DNA of 39,503 nucleotides, taken from IMG/VR virus record IMGVR_UViG_2718218309_000001, one strand, 5' to 3'. The translations under genes were made by a program, and so were the position numbers. A model generated the notes under the pieces. The model saw only the letters and a list, made by a program, of their open reading frames with translations, was not told where the DNA came from and ran no database searches. Positions 15,012 to 32,724 of this stretch are shown piece after piece. Source of the DNA: a virus (lineage: Duplodnaviria > Heunggongvirae > Uroviricota > Caudoviricetes). Position 1 is the first letter of the stretch; each line of letters starts with the position of its first letter.

Positions 15012-15056
15012 GCTTATGTCATGCAGACGCATGAAAACCACTACATAAAGCGGGCA

Positions 15057-15075: not shown

Positions 15076-15185
15076 CGCGCGCTCATGGTTGAATTAATGA
15101 AATTATGGTGTTAAATAGGCTAGCTTTTTAAGTCGTGAATATTCAATTTTTCAACTCATTTTTTTCATAGGGAGGAGTAATTGAC

Positions 15186-15884: not shown

Positions 15885-15892
15885 GTTCGGAA

Positions 15893-16930: not shown

Positions 16931-18693
16931 AAAATCTCCACAATATTGCTGGTATTGGCGGACTCGCCCTGCAGCGGTTCGTTAAACAGTGCGTGCATTG
17001 TTGCCCAGGCCAGATCGGCATGGCTGGCTTCTTCGCTGCGGCTGGCTTCATAGGTCGGGCGGTTGCCACTGGCAGTGGTAGCGCGACGGATTGCCATAAA
17101 TGACTGCGCAATGTCGGTGTGCCCGGCGTCAAACTCCAGACGGCGGTGGCTGATAATGTCGTAGGCCTTGAGTACCAGGGCGTTTTTAACGTTGGGGTTA
17201 TAGACAAACTCCCTGACGGCAGGAAAAAACGCTTTCACGTTCTCGTAAACCCCGTGACCGACGCCGGTCGAGTCGATACCGATATAGGTCACGTTATACT
17301 GTTCGGTCAGTTTTTTGATGGCGTCAGCCTGGGCGCGGAAGTCCATCCCGCGCCACTGGTGACGCTCAAGAATGCGGAACTTACCACCCGGCACGGCTGG
17401 CGGAGCCACCACCACGCATCCGGCACTGTCGCCGTTCTGCGTACCTTTTGCCGGGTCATAACCGATCCACACTTCGCGCCAGCCAAACGGGCGCAGGGCC
17501 AGTGCATGAAAGTCGGTCCAGACTTCCCAGCTGTCCACCATGCACGCCTGCAGTTCGCTGAGCGGGAACACGGACGCGAGATCGTCCACGAACTCGCACA
17601 TCAGCAGGTTCTGGTATTCGTCCGGGCTGTACTCCATGCGCAGCTGGTCGAGGTCGAACAGGTTACAGCCGCCGCGCACCGCATCTTCCACGGTGACTAT
17701 CTGGCGGTATTGCCCGTCTGCGCACAGTAGGCCGGGGGCCAGATTGCTGTGGGACAGGTCGATGTCCACCTTGTCAGCTTTGTTGCGTCCACGGTTGAAC
17801 AGCGCACCGGACCAGAACGGATAAGCACTGTGGGTCAGGCTGGATGGCGTGGAAAAATAGGTTTGTCGCCATTTCTTGTGAATAGCCATACCGGAAGCCA
17901 CTTTGCGCAACTCCTGGAATTTCGGTATCCAGAAATATTCATCCAGATACAGGTTGCCGTGGTAACTCTGCGCCGTGCGGGCATTGGTGCCGAGGAAGTA
18001 AAGCGTGGCCCCGTTAGGAAGCACCATCGGATCGCCTTTCAGCTCCACCTCGACTTCTTTGGCGAAGTCGATGATGTACTGCTTGAAGACGTGGGCCTGT
18101 GCCTTACTGGCAGAAAGGAAAATCTGGTTACGTCCGGTAAGCAGAGCGTCAATCAGGGCTTCACGGGCAAAGTAAAAGGTCGCGCCGATCTGGCGTGACT
18201 TCAGCAGGTTGCGGATGCGGTTGGTTTTTCCGGCTTCCCACCAGTGGCGCTGGTAGTTGAACATGGAGGAATGGAAGATTTCTTCCAGTTTCTCTATCTG
18301 TTCATCGGTGAAAACATTCTTTTCCGGCTGACGGCGCGGGCCTTTGTTGCGGTTGGCGACGTTAGGGTTTAAGTCGGCTTCGTTGCCGCCATTGTTAAAC
18401 TTGCCGATCCGCGCGTGGCGCTCCGACTGGCGCGCCAGCAGGTCAATTTCTTTGAAATCTTTCCCTTCTTTGTGCTCCTTCATAATGAGCTGGCAGTAAC
18501 GTGCGGCGGTGGTGAGCTGCATCTGATCCAGCGGCCCATAGTCACCCCACTTGTCGCGTTTCTTCCAGCTGTGAACGGTTGCAACTTTCTCGCCCAGCAT
18601 TTCAGCAATGCGGGCTACGCGGTATCCCTGAAAGTACAGCAGCATGGCCTGCCGACGGGGATCGAGATCTGCGGGTGTCAGTGTGGTGTTCAT
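16927..18693 (-). CDS. P: Terminase large (ATPase) subunit (P2 gpP)
   Basis: 588-aa protein in the P2 P position, overlapping Q by 4 nt; Walker-type ATPase region (SRQIGATFYFAREA). Confidence 0.95.
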   Translation of the reverse strand: MNTTLTPADLDPRRQAMLLYFQGYRVARIAEMLGEKVATVHSWKKRDKWGDYGPLDQMQLTTAARYCQLIMKEHKEGKDFKEIDLLARQSERHARIGKFNNGGNEADLNPNVANRNKGPRRQPEKNVFTDEQIEKLEEIFHSSMFNYQRHWWEAGKTNRIRNLLKSRQIGATFYFAREALIDALLTGRNQIFLSASKAQAHVFKQYIIDFAKEVEVELKGDPMVLPNGATLYFLGTNARTAQSYHGNLYLDEYFWIPKFQELRKVASGMAIHKKWRQTYFSTPSSLTHSAYPFWSGALFNRGRNKADKVDIDLSHSNLAPGLLCADGQYRQIVTVEDAVRGGCNLFDLDQLRMEYSPDEYQNLLMCEFVDDLASVFPLSELQACMVDSWEVWTDFHALALRPFGWREVWIGYDPAKGTQNGDSAGCVVVAPPAVPGGKFRILERHQWRGMDFRAQADAIKKLTEQYNVTYIGIDSTGVGHGVYENVKAFFPAVREFVYNPNVKNALVLKAYDIISHRRLEFDAGHTDIAQSFMAIRRATTASGNRPTYEASRSEEASHADLAWATMHALFNEPLQGESANTSNIVEIF

Positions 18694-18739
18694 GGCACAA
18701 ACCTACAGCCTTGAATGAAGGCTTTCCCCGCCTGCGGTT

Positions 18740-18757
18740 TGTGTGGTTGTCGGTACA
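18740..18757. promoter_or_regulatory. Ogr-type late promoter element TGT-N12-ACA (P/O divergent late promoter region)
   Basis: TGTGTGGTTGTCGGTACA in the P-O intergenic region, centred about 55 bp upstream of the expected O transcription start. Confidence 0.5.
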
Positions 18758-18835
18758 AATACCGCGCATTGTTTCACTGCCCCCATCACCGCAACCATAA
18801 GGCTCCAGTAAGTTATTTCTAACGGAGCACGGCTC

Positions 18836-19669
18836 ATGACAGTGAAAGCAAAGCGTTTTCGCATCGGGGTGGAAGGTGCCACCACCGACGGACGCGAAAT
18901 CCAGCGTGAATGGCTGGAACAGATGGCAGCCAGCTACAACCCGGCGGTGTATACCGCGCTGATTAACCTTGAGCACATCAAGTCTTATCTCCCGGACAGC
19001 ACCTTTAACCGTTACGGCAAGGTGACGGCGCTGTTTGCTGAAGAAATCACGGAAGGCCCGCTGGCAGGCAAGATGGCGCTGTATGCCGACGTTGAGCCAA
19101 CGGAGTCCCTGGTGGAATTGGTGAAAAAAGGCCAGAAATTATTCACCTCTATGGAAGTCAGCCCGAAGTTCGCTGATACGGGCAAAGCCTACCTGGTCGG
19201 CCTGGCTGCCACTGATGACCCTGCCAGTTTGGGTACGGAAATGCTGACATTCAGCGCCAGTGCAGCCCATAACCCGCTGGCAAACCGCAAGCAGAATCCC
19301 GCCAATCTCTTTACCGCCGCAGAGGAAACGGTGATCGAACTGGAAGAAATCCAGGAGGACAAACCGTCCCTGTTTGCCCGTGTCACGGCGCTGTTTACCA
19401 AAAAAGAGCAGTCCGACGATGCCCGGTTCTCTGATGTGCATAAGGCCGTGGAGCTGGTCGCCACTGAGCAGCAAAACCTGAGCGCACGCACCGAAAAATC
19501 CCTGTCTGAGCAGGAAGAACGTCTGTTTGAGCTGGAGACTGCCCTGCAGGCACAGCAGACCGCCTTTAACGAACTGGTGAATAAGCTGAGTCATGAAGAC
19601 AGCCGCCAGGACTACCGCCAGCGTGCAACAGGCGGTAACGCCCCCGCTGACACTCTGACCAATTGCTGA
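18836..19669 (+). CDS. O: Capsid scaffolding protein (P2 gpO)
   Basis: 277-aa acidic coiled-coil-rich protein immediately before the major capsid gene. Confidence 0.9.
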   Translation: MTVKAKRFRIGVEGATTDGREIQREWLEQMAASYNPAVYTALINLEHIKSYLPDSTFNRYGKVTALFAEEITEGPLAGKMALYADVEPTESLVELVKKGQKLFTSMEVSPKFADTGKAYLVGLAATDDPASLGTEMLTFSASAAHNPLANRKQNPANLFTAAEETVIELEEIQEDKPSLFARVTALFTKKEQSDDARFSDVHKAVELVATEQQNLSARTEKSLSEQEERLFELETALQAQQTAFNELVNKLSHEDSRQDYRQRATGGNAPADTLTNC

Positions 19670-19685
19670 TGGAGCACAAAACCCG

Positions 19686-20744
19686 ATGAAGAAGAATACC
19701 CGCTTTGCTTTTAACGCTTACCTGCAGCAGCTGGCGCGTCTGAACGGTGTGGCAGTTGAAGAACTGTCCAGCAAGTTCACCGTAGAGCCGTCCGTGCAGC
19801 AGACGCTGGAAGACCAGATCCAGCAGTCCGCCTCTTTCCTGACGCTGATTAACGTCACGCCAGTGACTGAGCAGTCTGGTCAGTTGCTGGGGCTGGGTGT
19901 TGGCAGCACCATTGCCGGAACCACTGATACCACCGCGAAAGAGCGAGAACCTGTCGATCCGACGCTGATGGTCGATGTGGAATACAAATGCGAACAGACC
20001 AACTTTGACACGGTGCTGACCTACGCGAAGCTGGACCTGTGGGCGAAGTTTCAGGATTTCCAGGTGCGTATCCGTAACGCCATCGTGAAACGTCAGGCAC
20101 TGGACCGCATCATGATCGGCTTTAACGGCGTGAAGCGTGCGAAAACCTCCAACCGTAGCGAAAACCCGCTGCTGCAGGATGTGAACAAAGGCTGGCTGCA
20201 GAAAATCCGTGAGGATGCACCGGATCACGTCATGGGCAGCACCACCACGGGCGGTGAAACCACACCGGGCGCGGTGAAAGTCGGGAAAGGTGGCGAATAT
20301 GCCAACCTGGACGCCGTAGTGATGGATGCCGTCAATGAGCTTATCGATGTGGTCTACCAGGACGATGACGATCTGGTGGTGATTTGCGGTCGTGAACTGC
20401 TGTCTGACAAGTATTTCCCGCTGGTCAACAAAGAGCAGGAAAACAGTGAAAAACTGGCTGCCGATATGATCATCAGTCAGAAACGCATGGGTGGCCTGCA
20501 GGCGGTGCGTGCGCCGTTCTTCCCGCCGAATGCGCTGCTGATCACCCGTCTGGATAACCTGTCCATCTACTGGCAGGAAGATACCCGCCGCCGTTCAGTT
20601 ATCGACAACCCGAAACGTGACCGGATTGAAAATTTTGAATCCGTTAACGAAGCCTATGTGGTTGAGGACTATCGCTGCGCTGCACTGGTGGAAAACATCC
20701 AGATTGGTGACTTCAGCGCCGCCGCAGCAGAAACCGGAGCGTAA
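19686..20744 (+). CDS. N: Major capsid protein (P2 gpN)
   Basis: 352-aa protein in the P2 N position; size and order match. Confidence 0.95.
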   Translation: MKKNTRFAFNAYLQQLARLNGVAVEELSSKFTVEPSVQQTLEDQIQQSASFLTLINVTPVTEQSGQLLGLGVGSTIAGTTDTTAKEREPVDPTLMVDVEYKCEQTNFDTVLTYAKLDLWAKFQDFQVRIRNAIVKRQALDRIMIGFNGVKRAKTSNRSENPLLQDVNKGWLQKIREDAPDHVMGSTTTGGETTPGAVKVGKGGEYANLDAVVMDAVNELIDVVYQDDDDLVVICGRELLSDKYFPLVNKEQENSEKLAADMIISQKRMGGLQAVRAPFFPPNALLITRLDNLSIYWQEDTRRRSVIDNPKRDRIENFESVNEAYVVEDYRCAALVENIQIGDFSAAAAETGA

Positions 20745-20747
20745 TTC

Positions 20748-21398
20748 ATGAGCCTGAGTCCCGCACGGCAGCATCGCCTGCGCGTTCAGGCTGAACAGGC
20801 CGCTCGCGAGGGTGGCAGTGTTCGCCACGCGTCGGGCTATGACCTGATGCTGCTGCAACTGGCGGAAGACCGCCGCCGTCTCAAGGGCGTTCAGTCCACG
20901 GTCAAAAAAGCGGAAATCAAGGTGGAGCTGCTGCCGAAATATGCCGCCTGGGCGGAGGGCGTTCTGGCTGCCGGAGGCGCTCAACAGGATGACGTGCTGA
21001 TGTACGTGATGCTGTGGCGCATTGATGCCGGAGATTATGCAGGGGCGCTGGAGATCGGGCGTCATGCCCTGCGTCATGGCTGGGTGATGCCGCTGGGTAA
21101 CCGCAACGTGCAGACCGTGCTGGCAGAGGAAATGGCAGACGCGGCGCAGAGCGCAATGCTTGCCGCCACCGGCTTTGATGCCGATCTGTTGCTGCAGACG
21201 CTGGAGCTGACAGACGGTCTGGATATGCCGGACCAGTCACGGGCGCGTCTGCATAAAGCGATTGGCGCTGTCCTGAGTGAAAGCAACCCGGCTTCCGCCC
21301 TTAATCATCTCAACCATGCGTTACAGCTCGATCCTCGCTGTGGCGTGAAAAAAGACAAACAGCAGCTGGAGCGCAGACTGCGCAATGACAGCCGCTGA
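20748..21398 (+). CDS. M: Terminase small (endonuclease) subunit (P2 gpM)
   Basis: 216-aa protein following N, as in P2. Confidence 0.85.
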   Translation: MSLSPARQHRLRVQAEQAAREGGSVRHASGYDLMLLQLAEDRRRLKGVQSTVKKAEIKVELLPKYAAWAEGVLAAGGAQQDDVLMYVMLWRIDAGDYAGALEIGRHALRHGWVMPLGNRNVQTVLAEEMADAAQSAMLAATGFDADLLLQTLELTDGLDMPDQSRARLHKAIGAVLSESNPASALNHLNHALQLDPRCGVKKDKQQLERRLRNDSR

Positions 21399-21493
21399 CA
21401 GAACGTGCCCCCGCGCACGGGCGGCACGGGGTGGCGAAAGGCACTGCCACATCAAAACCCCGTCCACCGCCCTCTATTTCAGGAGAAAGCAGC

Positions 21494-21958
21494 ATGAAGT
21501 TTGTTGCGCCAGAACAGGCACCGGAACAGGCGGAAATCATCAGGAATACACCGTTCTGGCCTGATGTGGACCTGTCGGAGTTTCGCAGCGTGATGCGCAC
21601 TGACGGCACGGTGACGCAGCCGCGTTTAAAGCAGGTTGCGCTGTCGGCAATTTCGGAGGTCAACGCAGAGCTGTATGAGTTTCGCAGACGCCAGCAGATG
21701 CTGGGGTATGCCTCGCTGGCAGAAGTTCCGGCGGAACAGCTGGACGGCAAAAGTGAGCGCATTCAGCACTATTTCAACGCGGTTTACTGCTGGGCACGCG
21801 CCATGCTCAACGAACGATACCAGGACTATGACGCCACGGCGTCCGGTGTGAAGCGGGGCGAGGAACTGGCGGAAGCAAGCGGTGATTTGTGGCGTGACGC
21901 CCGCTGGGCCATCAGCCGGGTGCAGGATGCGCCGCACTGCACAGTGGAGCTTATCTGA
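21494..21958 (+). CDS. L: Head completion/stabilisation protein (P2 gpL)
   Basis: ATG at 21494 preceded by AGGAGAAAG RBS; position after M. Confidence 0.85.
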   Translation: MKFVAPEQAPEQAEIIRNTPFWPDVDLSEFRSVMRTDGTVTQPRLKQVALSAISEVNAELYEFRRRQQMLGYASLAEVPAEQLDGKSERIQHYFNAVYCWARAMLNERYQDYDATASGVKRGEELAEASGDLWRDARWAISRVQDAPHCTVELI

Positions 21959-22161
21959 TGAAAGTGCGTGCGCATCAGTATGACACGGTGGACGCGCTTT
22001 GCTGGCGTCATTACGGGCGCACGCAGGGGGTCACGGAGCAGGTACTGAAGGCAAATCCGGGGCTTGCCGAATACGGCCCCTTTTTACCTCACGGGCTGCA
22101 GGTGGAGCTGCCGGACATTCCGACCACCACCACCGTGCAGACCGTCCAGCTATGGGACTGA
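21958..22161 (+). CDS. X: Tail protein X (P2 gpX)
   Basis: 67-aa ORF whose start overlaps the L stop (TGATG); position as in P2. Confidence 0.8.
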   Translation: MKVRAHQYDTVDALCWRHYGRTQGVTEQVLKANPGLAEYGPFLPHGLQVELPDIPTTTTVQTVQLWD

Positions 22162-22164
22162 ATT

Positions 22165-22380
22165 ATGACGCTTGAGCGAATCAGCGCCTTTATCACGTAT
22201 TGCATCGCCGTCGTGCTGGCCTGGCTGGGCGATTTGTCCATCAAGGATGCCTCAACGCTGGGCGGCCTGATGATTGGTGTACTGATGCTGGCTATCAACT
22301 GGTACTACAAACACAAATCCTACCAGCTTCTGCGCGACGGGCAGATCTCGCGGGAGGACTATGAATCCATCAATCGTTAA
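22165..22380 (+). CDS. Putative holin (71 aa, two TM segments)
   Basis: Two hydrophobic helices and a charged C-terminus; immediately upstream of the endolysin. Confidence 0.65.
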   Translation: MTLERISAFITYCIAVVLAWLGDLSIKDASTLGGLMIGVLMLAINWYYKHKSYQLLRDGQISREDYESINR

Positions 22381-22873
22381 ACGCTGCCTTGTCGGGGCCG
22401 TGCTGGCTATTGCTGCCACGCTGCCGGGTTTTCAGCAGCTTCACACCTCCGTGGAGGGGCTGAAACTGATTGCTGATTACGAAGGCTGTCGTCTGCAGCC
22501 GTATCAGTGCAGCGCGGGTGTCTGGACCGACGGCATTGGTAATACATCGGGCGTCATTCCCGGCAAAACAATCACGGAACGACAGGCAGCAGAAGGGCTG
22601 ATCTCCAACGTGCTGCGTGTGGAGCGGGTACTGGAAAGGTGTGTGAAGCAACTGCCACCACAGAAGGTGTATGACGCTACGGTGTCGTTTGCCTTCAACG
22701 TGGGGACGGGCAATGCCTGCAGCTCCACGCTGGTGAAATTGCTCAATCAGCGGCGCTGGGCGGATGCGTGCCGACAGTTGCCGCGCTGGGTTTATGTAAA
22801 AGGTGTGTTTAATCAGGGGCTGGATAACCGCCGTGCGCGGGAGATGGCCTGGTGTTTACAGGGAGCAAACTGA
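22361..22873 (+). CDS. K: Phage lysozyme/endolysin (P2 gpK-like) with N-terminal hydrophobic signal-anchor (SAR-like) segment
   Basis: Hydrophobic N-terminus KRCLVGAVLAIAATLPGF followed by a lysozyme-like core (EGLKLIADYEGCRLQPY...GVWTDGIGNT). Confidence 0.85.
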   Translation: MNPSIVKRCLVGAVLAIAATLPGFQQLHTSVEGLKLIADYEGCRLQPYQCSAGVWTDGIGNTSGVIPGKTITERQAAEGLISNVLRVERVLERCVKQLPPQKVYDATVSFAFNVGTGNACSSTLVKLLNQRRWADACRQLPRWVYVKGVFNQGLDNRRAREMAWCLQGAN

Positions 22874-22874
22874 A

Positions 22875-23252
22875 ATGAAAAAGAAATTAATCAGCGGACT
22901 GTTTCTGATGTTATGGATGGCGCTGTTAATCGCAGCAATGGTGTATCCGCAGGGGATTTTTCCGGTACTGGCAGCGTCCGGCGTTTGGGTAGCCTGTTTG
23001 CTGACATGGGCGGTAATTCCGGTAGCACTGGCTGCGTTAATTAAGAATGGCCCGCTCTGGCAGGAGTTAAGGGCATCTTTACTGAAGACAATTACCCGAA
23101 AAGAAAACGTATTTATCAGTTGGGTGATGCGATTGCTGATTGTTGTAAGTCTCGCCTGGACGGGGTGGGCTATTACCCTGGTCTTTTATCTACTGACCGT
23201 TATTGCCTTCTGGATCACCCGTAATCAGATGGCGCAACAGGTAGCAGCATGA
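22875..23252 (+). CDS. lysA: Lysis accessory membrane protein (LysA-like, 125 aa, about 4 TM)
   Basis: Highly hydrophobic ORF between endolysin and LysB; ATG at 22875. Confidence 0.55.
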   Translation: MKKKLISGLFLMLWMALLIAAMVYPQGIFPVLAASGVWVACLLTWAVIPVALAALIKNGPLWQELRASLLKTITRKENVFISWVMRLLIVVSLAWTGWAITLVFYLLTVIAFWITRNQMAQQVAA

Positions 23253-23677
23253 ACCGGTTGCTGCTGGTTGTGCTGGCGTTATTACTGGCGGCGCTGGGCT
23301 GGCAGACGTGGCGGCTGGCTGATGCCAGCCAGACCATTAGCACGCAGGCAGACGAGCTGCAGAGCAAAAGCCAGGCACTGGCAAAGAGCAACAGCCAGCT
23401 TATCAGCCTGTCCATTCTGACTGAAACCAATAACCGGGAGCAGGCGCGGCTCTATGCCGAAGCAGAACAGACCAGCGCGCTGCTGAGACAACGACAACAC
23501 CGGATCGAGGAACTGAAACGTGAGAACGAGGATTTACGCCGCTGGGCTGATACTCCTTTGCCTGCTGACATTATCCGGCTGCGGGAACGTCCGACGCTCA
23601 CCGGAGGTGCAGCTTATCGTCAGTGGTTGTCCGCGAGTGACACCGTGTCGGCTGGATCAGGCAGCGCCGCGCACTAA
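23249..23677 (+). CDS. lysB: Rz-like inner-membrane spanin (P2 LysB)
   Basis: N-terminal TM anchor plus coiled-coil periplasmic domain; contains an overlapping out-of-frame lipoprotein ORF. Confidence 0.8.
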   Translation: MNRLLLVVLALLLAALGWQTWRLADASQTISTQADELQSKSQALAKSNSQLISLSILTETNNREQARLYAEAEQTSALLRQRQHRIEELKRENEDLRRWADTPLPADIIRLRERPTLTGGAAYRQWLSASDTVSAGSGSAAH

Positions 23678-23810
23678 CGGTGATCTGAACGCGTTGTTGG
23701 ATGAAACGGAGGCCGCCTGGGCGGTCTGTGCAGACAAAGTGGACATGATTATTGCGTGTCAGGAGCAAAACAGTGAACAAACCACAATCCCTGCGCCACG
23801 CCCTCAATAA
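23520..23810 (+). CDS. lysC: Rz1-like outer-membrane lipoprotein spanin (P2 LysC), overlapping lysB in the +1 frame
   Basis: GTG start; signal peptide with lipobox LTLSGC; Pro-rich mature part. Confidence 0.75.
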   Translation: MRTRIYAAGLILLCLLTLSGCGNVRRSPEVQLIVSGCPRVTPCRLDQAAPRTNGDLNALLDETEAAWAVCADKVDMIIACQEQNSEQTTIPAPRPQ

Positions 23811-24204
23811 AGCTGTGCCTTATGTCCGCAATAACCCGGACAAACTGCATCTGTTTGTGGATAACGGTTCGCTGGTTGCCACGGGGGCCAGCTCCATGTC
23901 GTGGGAGTACCGTTACACCCTGAACGCGGTGATTGAGGATTTCAGCGGCGACCAGAATCTGCTGATGGCCCCGGTTTTGCTGTGGCTGAGGGATAACCAG
24001 CCCGATGCCATCAATAACCCGGCGTTACGGGAAAAACTATTCACCTTTGAGGTGGATATTCTGCGCAACGATGTCTGTGATATCAGCCTGAACCTGCAAC
24101 TGACGGAGCGTGTGCTGGTCAGCACTGACGGTAGTGTGTCGAGTGTTGAAGCTATAGCGGAACCTGATGAACCTGAAGAAATGTGGACGGTGAAACGTGG
24201 CTGA
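23773..24204 (+). CDS. R: Tail completion protein (P2 gpR)
   Basis: Probable GTG start at 23773 with AGGAG RBS 7 nt upstream; position as in P2. Confidence 0.8.
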   Translation: MNKPQSLRHALNKAVPYVRNNPDKLHLFVDNGSLVATGASSMSWEYRYTLNAVIEDFSGDQNLLMAPVLLWLRDNQPDAINNPALREKLFTFEVDILRNDVCDISLNLQLTERVLVSTDGSVSSVEAIAEPDEPEEMWTVKRG

Positions 24205-24643
24205 ACTGCAGAAGGTGGACGACTGGCTGAGTGCCTTGCTGGCGAATCTGGAACCAGCCACGAGAAGCCGCATGATGCGCCAGCTGGCGCAGGAACTGCG
24301 CCGGACACAGCAGCAGAATATCAGGATGCAGCGCAATCCAGATGGCAGCAGTTATGAACCGCGCAGGGTAACAGCACGCAGCAAGAAGGGGCGCATCAAA
24401 CGTCAGATGTTTGCAAAGCTGCGCACCACAAAATACCTGAAAACTGCCGCCAGCACCGACTCTGCCAGCGTGCAGTTTGAAGGCAAGGTGCAGCGCATTG
24501 CCCGCGTTCACCATTACGGCCTGCGAGATCGCGTCAGTCGTAAGGGACCGGAGGTGCGTTACGCAGAGCGTCGCCTTCTGGGTGTAAATGATGATGTTGA
24601 GGCAATGACCCGCGACATGATTCTGCAATGGCTGGCGGGGTGA
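24197..24643 (+). CDS. S: Tail completion / virion morphogenesis protein (P2 gpS)
   Basis: GTG start overlapping R stop; size and position match P2 S. Confidence 0.85.
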   Translation: MAELQKVDDWLSALLANLEPATRSRMMRQLAQELRRTQQQNIRMQRNPDGSSYEPRRVTARSKKGRIKRQMFAKLRTTKYLKTAASTDSASVQFEGKVQRIARVHHYGLRDRVSRKGPEVRYAERRLLGVNDDVEAMTRDMILQWLAG

Positions 24644-24647
24644 TCTT

Positions 24648-24665
24648 TGTATCAGCACTGATACA
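24648..24665. promoter_or_regulatory. Ogr-type late promoter element TGT-N12-ACA (PV)
   Basis: TGTATCAGCACTGATACA (itself palindromic) centred about 55 bp upstream of the V start. Confidence 0.5.
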
Positions 24666-24711
24666 AGTTGCAGCACTGCCGCCTTTCTTCCCCTGATGGC
24701 AACCTTTCCCT

Positions 24712-25290
24712 ATGAACGCACAATTAACCGAAATCATGCGCCTTATCACCAACCTGATCCGCACAGGGGTAGTCACCGAAGTGGACAGGGAAAACTGGCT
24801 TTGCCGGGTGAAAACGGGCGAGCTTGAAACCAACTGGATCAGCTGGCTGACGCTGCGTGCCGGGAATGCCCGTACATGGTGGCGACCATCGGAAGGTGAG
24901 CAGGTGGTGCTGCTGAGTCTGGGCGGCAATCTGGAAACCGCCTTTGCGCTGCCCGCTGTCTATTCGAATCAGTTCGCACCACCGTCGACGTCGGCGGACG
25001 CCTGCGTGACAGAACATCCTGACGGTGGCTGGTTTGAATACGAACCCGCCACCGGGCGCTGGTATGTCAGGGGCATCAAATCAATGGTCATTGAGGCTGC
25101 TGACAACATCACCATGAAAACCAGTGAGTTTGTACTGGAGGCTGACCGCACGCGCATTAACAGCGAAGTGGTGATCAATGGTGGCGTTACCCAGGGCGGC
25201 GGAGCGATGAGTTCTAACGGGATCGTGGTTGATGCGCATCAGCATACTGGCGTCCTGAAAGGCGGCGATACAACCGGAGGCCCGGTATGA
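24712..25290 (+). CDS. V: Baseplate spike/assembly protein (P2 gpV)
   Basis: 192-aa protein in the P2 V position after S and the PV element. Confidence 0.9.
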   Translation: MNAQLTEIMRLITNLIRTGVVTEVDRENWLCRVKTGELETNWISWLTLRAGNARTWWRPSEGEQVVLLSLGGNLETAFALPAVYSNQFAPPSTSADACVTEHPDGGWFEYEPATGRWYVRGIKSMVIEAADNITMKTSEFVLEADRTRINSEVVINGGVTQGGGAMSSNGIVVDAHQHTGVLKGGDTTGGPV

Positions 25291-25646
25291 CGCTTTATAG
25301 CGGGATGAACAATACCAGCGGCAAAGTCATTACTGATATTGATCATCTGCGCCAGTCGGTGCGGGACATTCTGCTGACACCGCAGGGTAGTCGTATTGCC
25401 CGCCGGGAATATGGTTCCCTGCTGTCGGCACTGATAGATCAGCCACAAAATCCGGCATTACGCCTGCAGGTCATGTCGGCAGTGTATGTGGCGCTGAGTC
25501 GCTGGGAGCCACGGTTGACGCTGGATTCCATCACCATCAACAGCAATTTTGACGGTTCAATGGTGGTGGAGCTGACCGGGCGGCGGAATAACGGTGTGCC
25601 TGTGTCCCTTTCCGTATCAACAGGAGCAGAGAATGGCAGTGATTGA
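25287..25646 (+). CDS. W: Baseplate wedge protein (P2 gpW, gp25-like)
   Basis: 119-aa protein, start overlaps V stop; position between V and J as in P2. Confidence 0.9.
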   Translation: MTLYSGMNNTSGKVITDIDHLRQSVRDILLTPQGSRIARREYGSLLSALIDQPQNPALRLQVMSAVYVALSRWEPRLTLDSITINSNFDGSMVVELTGRRNNGVPVSLSVSTGAENGSD

Positions 25647-26541
25647 CCTTTCGCAGTTGCCTGCACCGCAGATTGTGGATGTGCCGGACTTTGAGACGCT
25701 GCTTGCCGAACGCAAGGCAGAATTTGTGGCGCTTCATCCGAAAGATGAGCAGGAAGCAGTGATCCGCACGCTGGAACTGGAATCTGAACCCGCCACTAAA
25801 TTGTTGCAGGAGAACGCTTACCGTGAGTTGCTTCTGCGCCAGCGCATTAACGAAGCCGCGCAGGCGGTGATGGTGGCTTACGCGATGGGCGGCGATCTTG
25901 ACCAGCTCGCTGCCAACTACAACGTGACACGCCTGACGGTGACGCCTGCTGATAATGATGCTGTGCCGCCCGTTGCAGCTGTGATGGAAAGCGATGAAGC
26001 GTTGCGCCTGCGTGTGCCTGCGGCCTTTGAAGGGCTTTCTGTTGCGGGGCCAACTGCAGCTTATGAATTTCATGCCCGAAGCGCCGACGGTCGGGTGGCG
26101 GATGCCAGTGCAACCAGCCCGGCACCTGCAGAGGTGGTGCTGACTGTCCTTAGCCGCGAAGGCGATGGAACTGCAGAAAAAGACCTGCTGGACGTGGTGG
26201 AAAAAGCTCTGAACAGTGAGAACGTCCGCCCGGTGGCTGACCGTCTTACGGTTCGCAGCGCAGAAATCATCCCGTACCGCGTGGAAGCCACCATTTTTCT
26301 CTATCCTGGACCGGAAGCAGAGCCGGTAATGGCAGCGGCAAAAGCCAGCCTGCAGAAGTACATCGCCAGTCAGACGCGTCTTGGTCGGGATATTCGCCGT
26401 AGCGCCATTTTTGCCGCCCTGCATGTTGAGGGGGTGCAGCGTGTGGAGCTGGCTTCTCCTCTGGCGGATGTGGTCCTGAACAAAACACAGGCGGCATCAT
26501 GTACGCAGTGGAGCGTAACCAACGGAGGAACGGATGAATAG
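25633..26541 (+). CDS. J: Baseplate assembly protein (P2 gpJ)
   Basis: 302 aa from ATG 25633 (same length as P2 J); overlaps W and I. Confidence 0.9.
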   Translation: MAVIDLSQLPAPQIVDVPDFETLLAERKAEFVALHPKDEQEAVIRTLELESEPATKLLQENAYRELLLRQRINEAAQAVMVAYAMGGDLDQLAANYNVTRLTVTPADNDAVPPVAAVMESDEALRLRVPAAFEGLSVAGPTAAYEFHARSADGRVADASATSPAPAEVVLTVLSREGDGTAEKDLLDVVEKALNSENVRPVADRLTVRSAEIIPYRVEATIFLYPGPEAEPVMAAAKASLQKYIASQTRLGRDIRRSAIFAALHVEGVQRVELASPLADVVLNKTQAASCTQWSVTNGGTDE

Positions 26542-27139
26542 TCTGCTGCCACCGGGTTCAACACCACTGGAGCGCCGACTGGCGCAAACCTGCAGCGGGA
26601 TTTCTGATCTGCAGGTGCCGCTTCGTGACTTGTGGAATCCGGCAACCTGTCCGGTCAGTTTCCTGCCTTATCTCGCCTGGGCGTTCTCTGTGGATCGCTG
26701 GGACGAGGGCTGGACAGAAAGCGTCAAGCGCCAGGTGGTGAAGGATGCTTTTTATATTCATCAGCATAAAGGGACCACCAGTGCCGTGCGGCGGGTGGTG
26801 GAGCCGTTCGGATTCCTGATCCGCATTATTGAGTGGTGGCAGACCGGAGAAACACCGGGCACGTTTCGCCTGGATATCGGCGTGCAGGACCAGGGCATCA
26901 CTGAAGATACCTATCTGGAACTTGAGCGACTGATAAGCGATGCCAAACCATGTAGCCGCCACATGATCGGCATGTCCATCAATCTGCAGACCAGCGGCCC
27001 GCATTGGGTGGGAGCCGCCAGCTATCTTGGCGAAGAAATCACGATCTATCCGTATATCAACGAAACGATTATTTCCGGTGGCACCGCGCATGAAGGCGGG
27101 GCGGTCCATGTTATTGACACAATGAGAGTGAATCCATGA
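26534..27139 (+). CDS. I: Baseplate/tail formation protein (P2 gpI)
   Basis: Position between J and tail fibre H; overlapping starts and stops. Confidence 0.85.
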   Translation: MNSLLPPGSTPLERRLAQTCSGISDLQVPLRDLWNPATCPVSFLPYLAWAFSVDRWDEGWTESVKRQVVKDAFYIHQHKGTTSAVRRVVEPFGFLIRIIEWWQTGETPGTFRLDIGVQDQGITEDTYLELERLISDAKPCSRHMIGMSINLQTSGPHWVGAASYLGEEITIYPYINETIISGGTAHEGGAVHVIDTMRVNP

Positions 27140-28638
27140 GCACAAAATTTTATACCCTGCTGACGGATATTGGCGCGGCGAAACTTGCCAGCGCCGCCGC
27201 GCTCGGTGTGCCGCTAAAAATTACCCATATGGCGGTGGGCGATGGCGGTGGAGTATTGCCAACGCCGGACGCAAAGCAGACGGCACTGGTAAATGAGAAA
27301 CGCCGGGCTGCGCTGAATATGCTTTATATCGACCCGCAGAACAGCAGCCAGATTATTGCCGAACAGGTGATCCCTGAAAACGAGGGCGGTTGGTGGATAC
27401 GTGAAGTGGGCTTGTTTGATGAGTCCGGGGCATTGATTGCCGTGGGCAACTGCCCGGAAAGCTATAAGCCGCAACTGGCTGAAGGTAGCGGGCGCACTCA
27501 GACCGTGCGCATGGTGCTGATTACCAGCAGCACGGACAATATCACCCTGAAAATCGACCCTGCTGTAGTGCTGGCAACCCGCAAGTATGTGGATGACAAG
27601 GCACTGGAGCTGAAGGTTTACGCGGATGATCAGATGGCAAAACATCTTGCCGCACCGGACCCGCATTCACAGTACGCGCCAAAAGCCAGCCCGACATTTA
27701 CCGGAACCCCCAAAGCGCCAACGCCAGCGGCGGGGAATAATACCACGCAGGTTGCGACCACTGCGTTTGTACAGGCGGCACTGACGGCCCTTATTAATGG
27801 TGCGCCAGCCACGCTGGACACGCTGAAAGAAATAGCCGCAGCCATTAACAATGATCCGAATTTCAGTACCACCATTAACAATGCGCTGGCACTAAAAGCA
27901 CCGTTGTCGAGTCCGGCACTCACCGGAACGCCAACAGCCCCCACGGCGGCGCAGTCGGTCAACAATACACAGATTGCCACTACGGCTTTTGTGAAATCGG
28001 CGATTGCAGGAATGGTGGGTTCTGCACCTGCTGCACTGGATACACTGAACGAACTGGCGGCGGCACTGGGGAATGATCCGAACTTTGCCACGACAATGCT
28101 TAATGCGCTGGCAGGTAAACAACCGCTGGACAATACGCTTACCAATTTGAGTGGAAAGGATGTAGCTGGTCTTCTCACATACCTTGGAATAGGAGAAACG
28201 GGAAAATACGACATTCTGCCAGCATCAAGAGGAGGCACTGGAGCGTCAACTATAGCCGGAGCATTGATAAACTTTGGTCTGAGTGATTTAGTGACTGCCG
28301 GATTAGTACAGGTGGAATCTGGTACAGACTTTATTACTGCTAAGATTCCATTTCTGTCAGGTGGTAGCAAGCGATTCCTGATGATACATGCCATCAAGGC
28401 GACAATGCCTGCAAATAATAACGGGTATAACCTTACTGTTACATTCCCGACTGCCTATGATAATGCACCGATACCAATTCTTGGCTCGACCGTAGGGTCG
28501 ACTTCAACAACGGGTGGTACCACAGAGTCAATGAATATTTCATCAGTCACAAAATCGGGTTGCATCATTTCTTCAGCATGGCAAACATGGTCTGAGGGAC
28601 CGGTATATCTTTTAACGATTGGAGGAGTTGCAGCATGA
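27136..28638 (+). CDS. H: Tail fibre protein (P2 gpH); C-terminal part lies inside an invertible segment
   Basis: 500-aa protein with conserved N-terminal MSTKFYTLLTDIGAAKLA; two tandem internal repeats of about 74 aa; AT-richer variable C-terminus after the crossover site at about 28184-28206. Confidence 0.9.
   Translation: MSTKFYTLLTDIGAAKLASAAALGVPLKITHMAVGDGGGVLPTPDAKQTALVNEKRRAALNMLYIDPQNSSQIIAEQVIPENEGGWWIREVGLFDESGALIAVGNCPESYKPQLAEGSGRTQTVRMVLITSSTDNITLKIDPAVVLATRKYVDDKALELKVYADDQMAKHLAAPDPHSQYAPKASPTFTGTPKAPTPAAGNNTTQVATTAFVQAALTALINGAPATLDTLKEIAAAINNDPNFSTTINNALALKAPLSSPALTGTPTAPTAAQSVNNTQIATTAFVKSAIAGMVGSAPAALDTLNELAAALGNDPNFATTMLNALAGKQPLDNTLTNLSGKDVAGLLTYLGIGETGKYDILPASRGGTGASTIAGALINFGLSDLVTAGLVQVESGTDFITAKIPFLSGGSKRFLMIHAIKATMPANNNGYNLTVTFPTAYDNAPIPILGSTVGSTSTTGGTTESMNISSVTKSGCIISSAWQTWSEGPVYLLTIGGVAA
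27685..28128 (+). repeat. Tandem in-frame duplication (2 x about 222 bp) within tail fibre gene H
   Basis: Peptide repeats (P..TGTP.APT.A...NNTQ.ATTAFV...G.APA.LDTL.E.AAA..NDPNF.TT..NALA.K.PL) at aa 184-257 and 258-331. Confidence 0.6.
28184..28206. repeat. Left crossover site of the tail-fibre invertible segment (inverted repeat partner of 29871-29893)
   Basis: TTGGAATAGGAGAAACGGGAAAA versus TTGGTTTGGGAGAAGCGGCAAAA on the opposite strand (18/23 identical); both encode a G.GE.GK-like junction inside tail fibre reading frames. Confidence 0.55.
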
Positions 28639-29021
28639 AATATTATTCACCTTCAATTAATGGATTTCCCGAACAAAAGACTGATGACAGTATTGAGATC
28701 AGTGAAGAGGTCTGGAGAATACTTCTTAGTGAAATTTACTCAGGCCGGGAGTTATTTAACGATGGCGGCGTACCCGCTACCCGTGTGCCGCAACCTACGC
28801 AAGAACAAGTAATTGCAGCCGCAGAAAATGAGCGCCAACGATTGCTGAATTATGCTGATACCGTAATGCTCGACTGGCGTACAGAATTGATGCTGGGTGA
28901 AATCAGCGACGCCAACAGGGCTAAATTGTCGGCGTGGCTGGCTTATAAAAATCAAGTTAAGTCGGTTGATGTGACAACTGACCCTGAGCATGTTAACTGG
29001 CCTGTTCCCCCGGAGGCGTAG
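28635..29021 (+). CDS. G: Tail fibre assembly protein (P2 gpG-like)
   Basis: 128-aa protein after H; conserved Tfa C-terminal motif (...NWPVPPEA). Confidence 0.8.
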   Translation: MKYYSPSINGFPEQKTDDSIEISEEVWRILLSEIYSGRELFNDGGVPATRVPQPTQEQVIAAAENERQRLLNYADTVMLDWRTELMLGEISDANRAKLSAWLAYKNQVKSVDVTTDPEHVNWPVPPEA

Positions 29022-29436
29022 GCCATTCAATATCTGGCGCACTGGAGGTATCAACCAGTTCCAGTGCGTCCAGATAATCCAGCCATAAATTATATTGTTC
29101 CAGCTCGTCACCTTTCAGACGACCAATAGCAGCTTTGCCAGGCCACTGATGGGTATTGATGTAGGTATTGACTTCTGAAACCAAAGATATTTTTTTCATT
29201 TCAGCCGTCAACACCTCATCCTCTTTTGAAGGGGGTGGGGAATTAATCCATACTGGCCGTCCTGAACTGTCAGCGCCAATTTCTTTCCCTTCTGGATGCA
29301 GCCCAAGAAATTGCTCATATGTTTCTCGGTTAATTTCAATAACATCATCTGGAAGCGTTCCCGCATCCTCATATTCTGGAAACAATTCTTGTAGATAAAA
29401 ACTTTTACTTCCGGGTGAAAAGAATACTGAGTTCAT
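28993..29436 (-). CDS. Alternative tail fibre assembly protein (tfa') in inverted orientation
   Basis: 147-aa protein with the same C-terminal motif family (...EWPTPPGEQAS); convergent with G, 3' ends overlap. Confidence 0.75.
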   Translation of the reverse strand: MNSVFFSPGSKSFYLQELFPEYEDAGTLPDDVIEINRETYEQFLGLHPEGKEIGADSSGRPVWINSPPPSKEDEVLTAEMKKISLVSEVNTYINTHQWPGKAAIGRLKGDELEQYNLWLDYLDALELVDTSSAPDIEWPTPPGEQAS

Positions 29437-29438
29437 TA

Positions 29439-29933
29439 TTACCGTCCAATGATTAACGCTGAGACGCTGGTATCTGAAGGAAAGGCTGCATTCAGTGGTT
29501 TGTCGACTTTGAATACAATCGTATTATTCCCCCGGACAGCGGCAAAAGAACAAACCGCCGTCGCGTATGAACCTGTAATATTACTGGATACACCACCATA
29601 GGTTGTTGTTGATACCAGAGGGATAACGCCCAGCACCTTATTAGGAAATACAAAGGGCAATGTGGCTGTGGCAATATAAGACTTATTAGAACCTGTGATG
29701 GCATAAGCATTATCAGTCATTCCATTCATCGCCACTGGGCCGCTTATACTTACAGTAACCATCTGAATGATTAGCCCGTCAGGTTGACGAATCACAAAAT
29801 TTCCATTGCCACCAGTAACCGTCCAGAAAGACATATCAGGGATTTGGTTTTCCCCGTTGCCCACATTCCGTTTTGCCGCTTCTCCCAAACCAACGTTTAA
29901 GAAAATGCAGAGGTAACAGCTAACTGGCATCAT
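29439..29933 (-). CDS. Alternative tail fibre C-terminal segment (H'), expressed as a fusion to the H N-terminus after inversion
   Basis: Frame stays open upstream of the listed Met through the right crossover site (…LGEAAKRNV…); Gly/Thr/Ser-rich beta-type composition typical of fibre tips. Confidence 0.7.
   Translation of the reverse strand: MMPVSCYLCIFLNVGLGEAAKRNVGNGENQIPDMSFWTVTGGNGNFVIRQPDGLIIQMVTVSISGPVAMNGMTDNAYAITGSNKSYIATATLPFVFPNKVLGVIPLVSTTTYGGVSSNITGSYATAVCSFAAVRGNNTIVFKVDKPLNAAFPSDTSVSALIIGR
29871..29893. repeat. Right crossover site of the invertible segment (inverted copy of 28184-28206)
   Basis: See left site; about 1.7 kb apart, invertase gene immediately outside. Confidence 0.55.
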
Positions 29934-29960
29934 CTCCGGTTTTTATTCAGGGGGATGATC

Positions 29961-30527
29961 ATGCTTATTGGCTATGTACGCGTGTCAACAAATGACCAGA
30001 ACACCGATTTGCAACGTAATGCACTGAACTGCGCGGGATGTGAGCAGATTTTTGAGGACAAAATCAGTGGCACTAAGTCCGACAGACCGGGGCTGAAAAA
30101 ACTACTCAGGACACTATCGGCAGGAGACACGCTGGTTGTCTGGAAGCTGGACAGGTTGGGGCGCAGTATGCGGCATCTTGTTACGCTGATAGAAGAGTTG
30201 CGCCAGCGTGGTGTGAATTTCAGAAGCCTGACTGACAGTATTGATACCAGTACCCCAATGGGCCGTTTCTTTTTTCATGTCATGGGTGCCCTGGCTGAAA
30301 TGGAACGCGAACTGATAGTTGAACGTACCAGGGCAGGGCTGGCTGCAGCTCGTGCCAAAGGCAGAGTAGGTGGACGCCGTCCTAAGTTGACCACCGAACA
30401 GTGGGCACAGATTGGGCGTTTACTCGAGGCCGGAGAATCAAGACAGCGTATTGCACTGATTTTTGATGTAGGCGTTTCTACCATTTATAGAAAATTTCCG
30501 GCAAATAAGATCAATGAATCCCCCTGA
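29961..30527 (+). CDS. Serine-recombinase DNA invertase (Hin/Gin/Pin/Cin family)
   Basis: MLIGYVRVSTNDQNTDLQ (catalytic Ser motif), ...DTLVVWKLDRLGRS..., C-terminal HTH (GVSTIYRKF); about 188 aa; adjacent to the inverted repeats. Confidence 0.9.
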   Translation: MLIGYVRVSTNDQNTDLQRNALNCAGCEQIFEDKISGTKSDRPGLKKLLRTLSAGDTLVVWKLDRLGRSMRHLVTLIEELRQRGVNFRSLTDSIDTSTPMGRFFFHVMGALAEMERELIVERTRAGLAAARAKGRVGGRRPKLTTEQWAQIGRLLEAGESRQRIALIFDVGVSTIYRKFPANKINESP

Positions 30528-30575
30528 ATCAGCATTATGTTGATTATCCCTGCAAGCAGACAAATACCGTTGTTT

Positions 30576-30593
30576 TGTGTGAATAACGACACA
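30576..30593. promoter_or_regulatory. Ogr-type late promoter element TGT-N12-ACA (PF)
   Basis: TGTGTGAATAACGACACA centred about 55 bp upstream of the expected FI transcription start. Confidence 0.5.
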
Positions 30594-30669
30594 ACTGCGC
30601 TTAGCTGTTTGTCAGGCACAATCACTTCAACATAGGGCGAAGCCTAATCCAATCAGGAGGTTCGCCACT

Positions 30670-31842
30670 ATGGCTCAGGATTACCACCACGGGGTGCGCG
30701 TTGTTGAAGTCAACGAAGGCACCCGATCTATTACCACGGTGAGCACCGCCATCGTGGGTATGGTCTGCACGGGCGATGATGCCGATGCAAAAATGTTTCC
30801 TCTTAATAAACCCGTGCTGATCACTGATGTGCTGACTGCCAGCGGTAAAGCGGGTGAGTCAGGTACTCTGGCCCGTTCGCTGGATGCCATCGCTGACCAG
30901 GCAAAACCCGTGACCATTGTTGTGCGTGTGCCGCAGGGTGAAACGGAAGACGAAACCACGACCAATATCATCGGCGCAGTGACTGCTGAAGGTAAAAAAA
31001 CAGGTATGAAAGCCCTGTTATCTGCCCAGTCACAGCTCGGCGTTAAACCGCGCATTCTCGGCGTGCCAGGCCACGACACCAAGGCGGTAGCTACTGAGTT
31101 GCTGAGCGTGGCGCAAAGCCTGCGTGGATTTGCTTACCTGTCAGCGTATGGCTGCAAGACAGTGCAGGAGGCGATCACTTACCGCGAAAACTTCAGCCAG
31201 CGCGAAGGGATGCTGATCTGGCCTGACTTTACTGGCTGGGACACGGTGCTGAATGCCGAAGCAACGGCATATGCCACCGCCCGTGCGCTTGGTCTGCGCG
31301 CCAAAATTGACGAGCAGACCGGATGGCACAAAAGCCTGTCCAACGTGGGCGTGAACGGTGTCACCGGAATTTCTGCAGATGTGTTCTGGGATCTGCAGGA
31401 CCCGGCAACCGATGCAGGTCTGCTGAACCAGAACGACGTCACCACGCTTGTGCGTAAAGACGGTTTCCGCTTCTGGGGTTCCCGCTGCCTGAGTGATGAC
31501 CCGCTCTTTGCCTTCGAAAACTACACCCGCACGGCGCAGGTGCTGATGGACACGATGGCAGAAGCACACATGTGGGCGGTGGATAAACCGCTTAACCCGT
31601 CGCTGGCCCGCGACATTATCGAAGGTATCCGCGCCAAAATGCGCAGCCTGGTCAGTCAGGGCTATCTCATTGGTGGTGATTGCTGGCTGGATGAGTCGGT
31701 GAACGACAAAGACACGCTGAAAGCCGGAAAACTCACCATCGACTACGACTACACGCCAGTGCCGCCACTTGAAAACCTGATGCTGCGTCAGCGCATCACC
31801 GATCAGTACCTGGTGAATTTCGCCAGCCAGGTCAGCGCGTAA
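30670..31842 (+). CDS. FI: Contractile tail sheath protein (P2 gpFI)
   Basis: 390-aa protein (P2 FI about 396 aa) in the conserved position before the tube gene. Confidence 0.95.
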
Positions 31843-31851
31843 GGGGACAAC

Positions 31852-32367
31852 ATGGCATTACCACGCAAATTAAAACACCTGAACCTGTTTAACGACGGGA
31901 ACAACTGGCAGGGGATCGTTGAGTCGCTGACGCTGCCGAAATTTACCCGCAAATATGAGAAGTATCGCGGCGGCGGAATGCCGGGTGCGGTGGATGTGGA
32001 TCTGGGGCTTGATGACAGTGCGCTGGACACAGAATTTTCCATTGGTGGTACTGAATTGCTGCTGTTTAAACAGATGGGTAAAGCCACGGTGGATGGCATC
32101 CAGCTGCGCTTTACCGGCTCTATTCAGCGTGACGATACCGGGGAAGTGCAGGCCGTGGAGCTTGTCGTGCGTGGACGTCACAAAGAAGTGGATTCCGGCG
32201 AGTGGAAGACGGGCGAAAGCAACACCACCAAAGTGACCAGTACCAACAGCTACGCGAAGCTGACCATCAATGGTGAGGTGCTCTATGAAGTGGACCTTAT
32301 CAACATGGTGGAAATTGTGGACGGTGTGGACCTGATGGAAGCGCACCGCAACGCCCTCGGCCTCTGA
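31852..32367 (+). CDS. FII: Tail tube protein (P2 gpFII)
   Basis: 171-aa protein following FI. Confidence 0.95.
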   Translation: MALPRKLKHLNLFNDGNNWQGIVESLTLPKFTRKYEKYRGGGMPGAVDVDLGLDDSALDTEFSIGGTELLLFKQMGKATVDGIQLRFTGSIQRDDTGEVQAVELVVRGRHKEVDSGEWKTGESNTTKVTSTNSYAKLTINGEVLYEVDLINMVEIVDGVDLMEAHRNALGL

Positions 32368-32421
32368 TATATCTGAACGGCGCGGGATACCGCGCCAGAA
32401 CCCAATTGACAGGACAGCAAA

Positions 32422-32724
32422 ATGAGCGATAAGCAGACTGAAAAGACCATTCAACTGGATACCCCCATCAAGCGCGGTAAAACAGAAATCACCGAAATTG
32501 TGCTGCGTAAACCGCAGTCCGGTGCGCTGCGCGGTACACGCCTGCAGGCCATTATGGATATGGATGTAAACGCGATGATGACCGTGATCCCCCGCATCTC
32601 CAGTCCGGCACTGACTGCACAGGAAATTGCAGAGATGGACCCGGCAGATCTCACTGCCATGTCGGTTGAGGTTGTCACTTTTTTGTTGAAGAAGTCGGTG
32701 CTTGCCGGTTTACCGACAGCCTGA
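32422..32724 (+). CDS. E: Tail assembly chaperone E (P2 gpE)
   Basis: 100-aa ORF before tape measure; contains slippery heptamer TTTTTTG at 32679-32685 near its 3' end. Confidence 0.85.
   Translation: MSDKQTEKTIQLDTPIKRGKTEITEIVLRKPQSGALRGTRLQAIMDMDVNAMMTVIPRISSPALTAQEIAEMDPADLTAMSVEVVTFLLKKSVLAGLPTA

Follow-up and report, generated by a model that had tools for sequence, protein, structure and literature searches.

Probable activator sites in the late region of an ssrA prophage

Are the three short dyads in the late region of the viral DNA studied here (IMG/VR record IMGVR_UViG_2718218309_000001; 39,503 nt, its full length hereafter called the window) the sites through which an activator would switch on the late genes, and how many promoters would they serve? 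The window is an Escherichia coli P2/186-like prophage inserted in ssrA, and its late region keeps the P2-like gene order, with Q and P on the minus strand followed by O...S, V...H/G, FI...D and then a gene of the Ogr_Delta family. Four late promoters of P2 depend on Ogr and share the consensus TGT-N12-ACA (PMC3931495), and similar motifs lie 50-90 bp from the initiation codons of Ralstonia P2-like phages (PMC5694545). Evaluating position, spacing and conservation, we interpret the three dyads, with a probability of about 0.88, as TTGT-N12-ACAA sites for the prophage's own activator of the Ogr/B family, which would drive four sigma-70 late promoters from them. Directly observed are the elements, their geometry and conservation, and the activator gene.

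A first-pass annotation of this DNA had listed three Ogr-type late promoter elements of the form TGT-N12-ACA at 18740-18757, 24648-24665 and 30576-30593, and we recovered the motif exactly at all three places, each within one of the few intergenic gaps of the late region (Table 1). The sites are indeed three, but the promoters they would serve number four, since the site between O and P would serve two divergent ones. Measured from the dyad centre, the ATG lies 87.5 bp away for O, 55.5 bp for V, 85.5 bp for FI and 55.5 bp, on the other strand, for P. The earlier statement that each element sits about 55 bp upstream of the start thus holds for the (predicted) transcription start, and extends to the start codon only for V and P.

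Conservation of the dyads among relatives

An O-protein scan of viral contigs returned only relatives that were 98-100% identical, of no use for footprinting, and we worked instead with annotated phages and with a one-genome-per-species scan by V-protein alignment, which gave 80 prophage loci from different Enterobacterales species (1.46 Mb). Only distinct upstream regions were counted (V, n = 85; P-O, n = 51; FI, n = 57). A perfect dyad was centred 55.5 bp from the ATG in 63 of the V regions and 56.5 bp from it in a further 9, with the corresponding counts for P being 45 and 3, such that the P-O dyad is kept in 48 of 51 regions. Seen from O, the same dyad lies 81.5-100.5 bp from the ATG with a mode of 87.5 bp, and 54 of the 57 FI regions carry a perfect dyad 78.5-85.5 bp from the start codon. 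At near-equal distances the dyad recurs in phages 4LV2017, RE-2010, YenM201.16, ST13-OXA48phi12.1, an Arsenophonus plasmid-prophage and 500465-1, whose N12 and remaining intergenic sequence differ, and the distances in the window match those in P2, 186 and six further P2-like phages.

Aligning these regions on the dyad revealed information peaks at TTGT/ACAA, at a weak TG near -34 and at a hexamer at -12 to -7, when positions are counted from a start at the dyad centre plus 55.5 bp. This -10-like hexamer has the consensus TAtgtT in the P alignment, CAttcT in that of V and cAacAT in that of FI. The spacer of the V alignment holds otherwise almost no information, and the P and O alignments, built from closer relatives, keep other blocks too. 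One such block, at 18723-18729 (TTTCCCC, or GGGGAAA on the minus strand; consensus GggGAAA), is kept in relatives about 30-36 bp from the P start, sits between the dyad and the -10-like hexamer of P, and bears no resemblance to a -35 element. Taken as a whole, the pattern is the footprint that would be expected of a dimeric activator site together with a -10 element.

Three matches to so short a motif could be chance occurrences without function, and the bare TGT-N12-ACA is indeed not enriched, with 7 matches found in the window where 10.0 ± 2.95 would be expected; the four others, at 18299, 31886 and 33881 (intragenic) and at 18682 (across the P start codon), are evidently meaningless. The longer TTGT-N12-ACAA is found in 39.5 kb only at these three sites, against 0.96 expected, and three or more matches arose in 10 of 100 shuffles, so the case rests on position and conservation. 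Against chance stand positions kept across 80 species-level prophages, where 165 of 440 perfect dyads fall inside promoter windows of about 2.3 kb (background 0.19 per kb; roughly 370-fold enrichment), conservation in the V region that is limited to the half-sites and the -10 and near zero elsewhere, and the agreement with annotated P2 and 186 sites. We regard chance as effectively refuted on this comparative evidence, and give it almost no probability.

Further matches in the neighbourhood did not hold up as sites. The match at 18682-18699, tried as a second activator or operator site, was rejected as probably fortuitous: it occurs in 12 of 51 relatives, its TGT and ACA are unconserved in the consensus, and it arises because the first codons of P are CA-rich (ATGAACACCACA). 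One-mismatch matches near the FI promoter (30544, 30570) were not kept in relatives.

The same alignments bear on whether the dyads might be RNA or DNA hairpins, for instance terminators after S or after the invertase gene. The V site invites this idea, being a perfect 8+8 palindrome 4 bp after the S stop codon. Predicted RNAs, however, fold no better than shuffled sequence (z -0.8 to -1.4) and are followed by no T-run, neither the other two sites nor the relatives have a self-complementary N12, and only the outer TTGT/ACAA is conserved, which is the signature of a dimeric protein site and not of a stem. Terminator calling placed no terminator on the dyads, the sole overlapping call (18751-18764) being a weak stem of 5 pairs that no T-run follows. 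We rejected the terminator reading on the folding result and consider hairpins in general very improbable.

Promoter elements and the resident activator

No consensus sigma-70 promoter was called on the relevant strand at any of the three gaps; the -35-like hexamers are weak (TTGTTT, CTGTTT), with TG alone conserved. The missing consensus promoters fit the activator dependence proposed here. Placing +1 at the dyad centre plus 55.5 bp brings an nAnnnT -10-like hexamer to -12 to -7 of the predicted starts of P_P, P_V and P_F, and the FI alignment has a conserved A at that very position. The core of P_O was placed from the P2 geometry (transcription start 55.5 bp from the dyad centre) and the alignment consensus, and its best hexamer, AACCAT, lies one base further out, implying a predicted +1 at about 18805. 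At P_P, relatives carry TAGGTT, TATGTT or TAGCCT at the equal position, with high information at the T, the A and the final T. The distance from dyad to -10 is 46 bp both here and for TAGCCT in P2, the latter being a hexamer that we infer from its place 7 bp upstream of the annotated start, as the P2 record annotates the start and not the hexamer.

The candidate activator is a 72-aa zinc-finger protein encoded after D (Table 1) that is 54.8% identical to P2 Ogr and 56.5% identical to 186 B. With this gene, the P2-like gene order, annotated P2 and 186 sites at homologous positions and conservation across species, the claim that the elements match P2 late promoter architecture is supported. In P2, activation proceeds via the C-terminal domain of the RNA polymerase alpha subunit. 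We propose that the resident Ogr-family protein would bind each dyad at about -55 and recruit RNA polymerase to promoters with a usable -10 and a poor -35. The P-O site would serve both P_P and P_O because it is equidistant from two divergent predicted starts about 111 bp apart (18693 leftward, about 18804 rightward), while the site after S would drive V-W-J-I-H... and the site after the invertase gene FI-FII-E-T-U-D. The O and FI mRNAs would carry leaders of about 30 nt with a Shine-Dalgarno (SD) sequence.

Members of the Ogr family are able to cross-activate, with helpers and satellites activating each other's promoters in the P2/P4 literature, and the dyads might accordingly be read mainly by another regulator, such as the delta protein of a P4-like satellite or a host factor, a possibility to which the identity of only about 55% between the resident protein and Ogr or B lends some room. 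Yet the prophage has its own Ogr_Delta gene in the canonical position after D, no second member of the family was noticed in the window, and cross-activation would add to resident activation and not replace it. A mainly foreign reader is thus very improbable, and the resident protein stays the preferred activator.

Weighing against this preferred assignment, beside the two motif counts given above, are the -10-like hexamers of O and V, which match TATAAT poorly, the modest identity of the activator to Ogr and B, which leaves its specificity an assumption, and the derivation of binding, activation and start points in this phage from geometry.

As an observation on the activator gene itself, its product is 69% identical to the counterpart in Escherichia phage 500465-1 (29211-29429), although the structural genes are 97% identical, and it matches that of Klebsiella prophages (Kp48xx-2) at 100% identity. 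The contrast shows that the late region is mosaic at its right end.

Predicted leaderless mRNAs for V and P

The four promoters differ in how the dyad relates to the start codon. An SD-like sequence precedes O in 50 of 51 regions and FI in 56 of 57, and was present in just 5 of 51 for P and 7 of 85 for V. The dyad-to-ATG distance is correspondingly rigid for P and V (55.5 or 56.5 bp in 48/51 and 72/85), while for O and FI it varies by 7-19 bp. Departures at V follow the same logic: two loci with the dyad at 68.5 bp have gained an SD (GAGG or GAAGG), and in three Xenorhabdus loci an in-frame upstream ATG is found at exactly 55.5 bp. The V consensus reads CAttcT-N6-ATG, with M1 and N2 of the protein invariant in the alignment. 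Rigid spacing, the absence of an SD and the start of P2 V on its ATG together indicate a leaderless V mRNA, and we predict that its +1 falls on the A of the ATG, as annotated for P2. Christie and Calendar reportedly dealt with the leaderless case of P2 V in 1985. A search of the literature for earlier reports that V or P of P2 is leaderless gave nothing usable.

For P, rigid spacing and the absence of an SD likewise indicate a leaderless mRNA in the clade of the window, and we consider this probable, with leaderless translation itself a prediction, even though it would set the clade apart from P2 and 186. Its main rival is a P start further upstream, with for instance AAGCCT (18724-18719) as the -10, the activator near -36, a leader of about 18 nt and TAGGTT serving as a weak SD. 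Several features lend this rival weight: AAGCCTT resembles TAGCCTT of P2 and 186 (25 versus 29 nt from the ATG), TAGGTT in the window could pass for a weak SD (AGGT, 7 nt from the P ATG), and P2 and 186 themselves have a leader of 22-23 nt on P, the last two being points that count against a leaderless P. The comparative data favour the leaderless form nonetheless. The CCT of AAGCCT is unconserved in relatives (information about 0), unlike the T, A and final T of the -12 to -7 hexamer; RE-2010 and ST13-OXA48phi12.1 have TATGTT before P, which is not SD-like; and YenM201.16 has TAGCCT, the -10 inferred for P_P of P2 and 186, followed by 6 nt and the P ATG, such that this hexamer itself occupies -12 to -7. 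Moreover, 46 of 51 relatives lack an SD, the dyad-to-ATG distance fixed in 48 of 51 is not something a leadered mRNA would require, and placing the activator at -36 would disrupt the geometry of the remaining promoters. On these grounds a short P leader appears unlikely.

The P start codon was evaluated separately. The N-terminus MNTTLTPADLDPRRQA aligns with P of P2 and 186, and a stop codon lies 3 codons upstream, and for these reasons we take the start at 18693 to be right. A shorter form beginning at M17, as in the records of 4LV2017 and RE-2010, was rejected, as it would start inside the conserved DPRRQA(M/A)LLY block. The RefSeq entries of 4LV2017 (NC_047818, 819-2537) and RE-2010 (NC_019488) do begin P 16 codons downstream, within the DPRRQAMLLY block, probably owing to a true start that has no SD. 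By extension, our comparison suggests that many database records begin gene P at the wrong codon.

For the Fels-2/Wadgaonvirus/Elveevirus type, a large clade of P2-like Enterobacterales prophages to which the window belongs, we lean towards both the P-Q and the V-... operons being leaderless, each set by a rigid arrangement of dyad, 46-bp interval, -10, 6-bp interval and AUG. If so, the single P-O dyad would give rise to a leaderless transcript in one direction and a leadered one in the other, and the P_P variant would be an undescribed one, as the models P2 and 186 have a P leader.

The FI promoter and the invertase cassette

The first-pass annotation had further held that the elements mark operon boundaries and that the insertion containing the invertase left the FI promoter intact. 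The elements do mark promoters, but S and V, and likewise the invertase gene and FI, are not separated by a convincing terminator, and read-through is likely. As to FI, the gap that follows the invertase gene does hold a complete consensus promoter, which lies outside the invertible segment; the whole intergenic sequence, however, is unlike that of the invertase-less relatives 4LV2017 and RE-2010 save for the dyad and the -10. We therefore consider the claim partly supported: P_F would be a functional equivalent and not a demonstrably untouched ancestral sequence, with "left intact" holding in a functional and not a historical sense. From these differences P_F seems to travel with the variable module, or to have diverged along with it.

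A well-formed hix/gix-like crossover site (TTCTCCCAAACCAACGTTTAAGAAAA) lies at 29880-29905, where the inverted alternative tail-fibre segment begins. A search for its left partner gave a degenerate 18/26 sequence inside H (28172-28197) as the only candidate, so the switch that inverts the tail-fibre segment may have degenerated or become frozen.

Gene map, prophage boundaries and cargo

Megablast of 15000-35000 recovered P2-like phages (Peduoviridae), among them Escherichia phage 500465-1 (Wadgaonvirus) at 97% identity and a set of Klebsiella prophages at 96%. The late gene map in Table 1 draws on the open reading frame (ORF) map, Pfam and synteny with the annotated phages 500465-1, P2 and 186.

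Table 1. Coordinates of late genes, dyads and predicted promoter elements in the window, with the annotated activator sites of P2 for comparison (TSS, transcription start site; P2 positions refer to NC_001895).
Feature	Position	Strand	Remarks
Q (portal)	15893-16930	-	ORF map, Pfam, synteny
P (terminase large subunit)	16927-18693	-	Pfam Terminase_5/6N/6C
P_P -10-like TAGGTT	18700-18705	-	-12 to -7 from A of P ATG; no -35; predicted +1 18693
Shared P/O dyad TTGTGTGGTTGTCGGTACAA	18739-18758	.	centre 18748.5; for P_P leftward and P_O rightward
P_O -35-like TTGTTT	18769-18774	+	weak
P_O -10-like AACCAT	18793-18798	+	predicted +1 about 18804-18807
P_O SD GGAG	18824-18827	+	O ATG at 18836
O	18836-19669	+	ORF map, Pfam, synteny
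S	24197-24643	+	ORF map, Pfam, synteny
P_V dyad TTGTATCAGCACTGATACAA	24647-24666	.	perfect 8+8 palindrome; centre 24656.5; 4 bp after S stop codon
P_V -10-like CAACCT	24700-24705	+	no -35
V start codon ATG	24712-24714	+	predicted +1 A24712
V (baseplate)	24712-25290	+	ORF map, Pfam, synteny
H	27136-28638	+	ORF map, Pfam, synteny
Serine invertase	29955-30527	+	ORF map, Pfam, synteny
P_F dyad TTGTGTGAATAACGACACAA	30575-30594	.	centre 30584.5; 48 bp downstream of invertase stop codon
P_F -35-like CTGTTT	30605-30610	+	
P_F -10-like CAACAT	30628-30633	+	predicted +1 A30640, up to 30643
P_F SD AGGAGG	30655-30660	+	FI ATG at 30670
FI	30670-31842	+	ORF map, Pfam, synteny
D	36407-37507	+	ORF map, Pfam, synteny
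ogr/B-like late activator gene, 72 aa	37598-37816	+	zinc finger CX2CX22CX4C; Pfam Ogr_Delta E 5e-22
tmRNA (ssrA)	39102-39464	-	
P2 pO+pP shared activator binding site	3057-3087		TSS 3016 (P, leftward), 3127 (O)
P2 pV activator binding site	10239-10266		TSS 10308, first base of V coding sequence
P2 pF activator binding site	17555-17583		TSS 17626-17628

The prophage is bounded by an exact 45-bp direct repeat of the ssrA 3' end at 3670-3714 and 39102-39146 (attL/attR), and its left flank (1-3700) is 100% E. coli chromosome that directly adjoins ssrA in other strains. Just outside attL, a second integrase of the P4 type (Arm-DNA-bind_3 plus Phage_integrase; 2275-3546, minus strand) adjoins a gene with a Response_reg_2 domain (1-1749), and the two make up an ssrA-associated island that is older than the prophage and lies in tandem with it.

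Several genes inside the prophage appear to be cargo. Between attL and the prophage integrase (6200-7219) lie ORFs of 397 aa (3828-5021) and 375 aa (5076-6203), both on the minus strand; neither had a match in Pfam or PADLOC, and they are cargo at the prophage end. A gene at 15186-15884 (plus strand), between replication gene A and Q and thus at the position of the P2 old/tin hotspot, encodes DUF4145 with a weak PADLOC match to PD-T7-4 (1e-6), and its neighbour ORF 14285-14896 is without matches. Between ogr and attR lies a retron-type reverse transcriptase (38220-38993; Pfam RVT_1 2e-21, PADLOC RT_VI 6.6e-18). In front of it are a 62-aa ORF (38063-38251) and some 220 bp without coding sequence, which could hold an msr/msd RNA, with Rfam giving no match in the region (37840-38993). 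This reverse transcriptase is likely defence cargo.

Implications

To summarize the biology, late units of an E. coli ssrA prophage can be annotated by P2/186 homology as four promoters, three sites and one activator gene, an annotation that helps to predict inducibility, cross-talk with P4-like satellites and the expression of cargo inside late operons. The dyads are an element type already described for P2 and 186, and finding them is routine annotation that leaves the current understanding of P2-type regulation unchanged. What the comparative data add is a clean promoter footprint across about 80 species and one modest, mildly new point, namely the predicted leaderless expression of the terminase operon from a shared P/O site in this clade.

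Comparison with P2, 186 and close relatives

The proposed leaderless transcripts resemble known examples from temperate phages (cI of lambda, transcribed from P_RM, and V of P2) in the predicted start on the A of the AUG, the lack of an SD, the fixed spacing from promoter to ATG and the CA-rich first codons (ATGAACACCACACTGACACC for P). Such codons are typical of efficiently translated leaderless mRNAs. In contrast to lambda cI and P2 V, the case made for the window draws solely on geometry and conservation.

P2 has the same four operons in the same order and a single P-O site. Its V site precedes a promoter whose transcript begins on the V ATG, its FI site lies about 56-58 bp from the transcription start, the -35 elements are poor throughout, and D is followed by ogr itself, of which the window carries a homologue. 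In P2, 55.5 bp separate the dyad centre from both the pP and the pO start, and across P2 and 186 the mapped or annotated starts fall 55.5-58.5 bp from it, with 186 pJ and P2 pF at 56.5-58.5 bp. The P2 sites themselves are imperfect, reading TGT-N12-CCA at pO/pP and pF and TTGT-N11-ACAA at pV, whereas all three in the window are perfect TTGT-N12-ACAA. The P leader of P2 (22-23 nt) carries a GAGG SD that the window lacks, and the P-O gap measures 173 bp in P2 and 142 bp in the window. P2 also has orf30 and a terminator between S and V as well as Z/fun and a terminator before pF, all missing from the window, which unlike P2 has the invertase cassette before pF. The FI dyad-to-ATG distance is 85.5 bp in the window, 82.5 bp in P2 and 81.5 bp in 186.

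Likeness to 186 extends beyond the late region, as the switch region of the window is of the 186 type, with a CI that has a Phage_CI_repr domain and a 169-aa ORF at the cII position that has the length of 186 cII. The late promoters of 186 (p12, pV, p32 and pJ) are B-dependent, and in its record a single B-protein site serves the divergent p12 and pV, as the shared site would in the window, with another annotated for pJ. The left half-site is nearly identical in the two (186, GTTGTGTGG; window, TTTGTGTGG), and the ATG of the O homologue lies 87.5 bp from the dyad centre in both. The 186 sites differ in reading TGT-N12-CCA, with a poor match (TGT-N12-CGG) before the V homologue, and its P homologue has a 23-nt leader.

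Also close are the phages of the Fels-2/SopEPhi/RE-2010/Klebsiella 4LV2017 type, for which the public records examined contain no promoter annotation. They differ from the window in the N12 of the V and FI sites and in the sequence flanking these sites, RE-2010 having in addition an extra gene between S and V, and 4LV2017 lacking the invertase cassette and carrying a terminator before the FI dyad. They share with it a near-identical P-O region of 142 bp and the 55.5-bp geometry of P and V, and the related phages Fels-2 and SopEPhi are known to integrate, as the prophage in the window does, at ssrA (PMC3448106).

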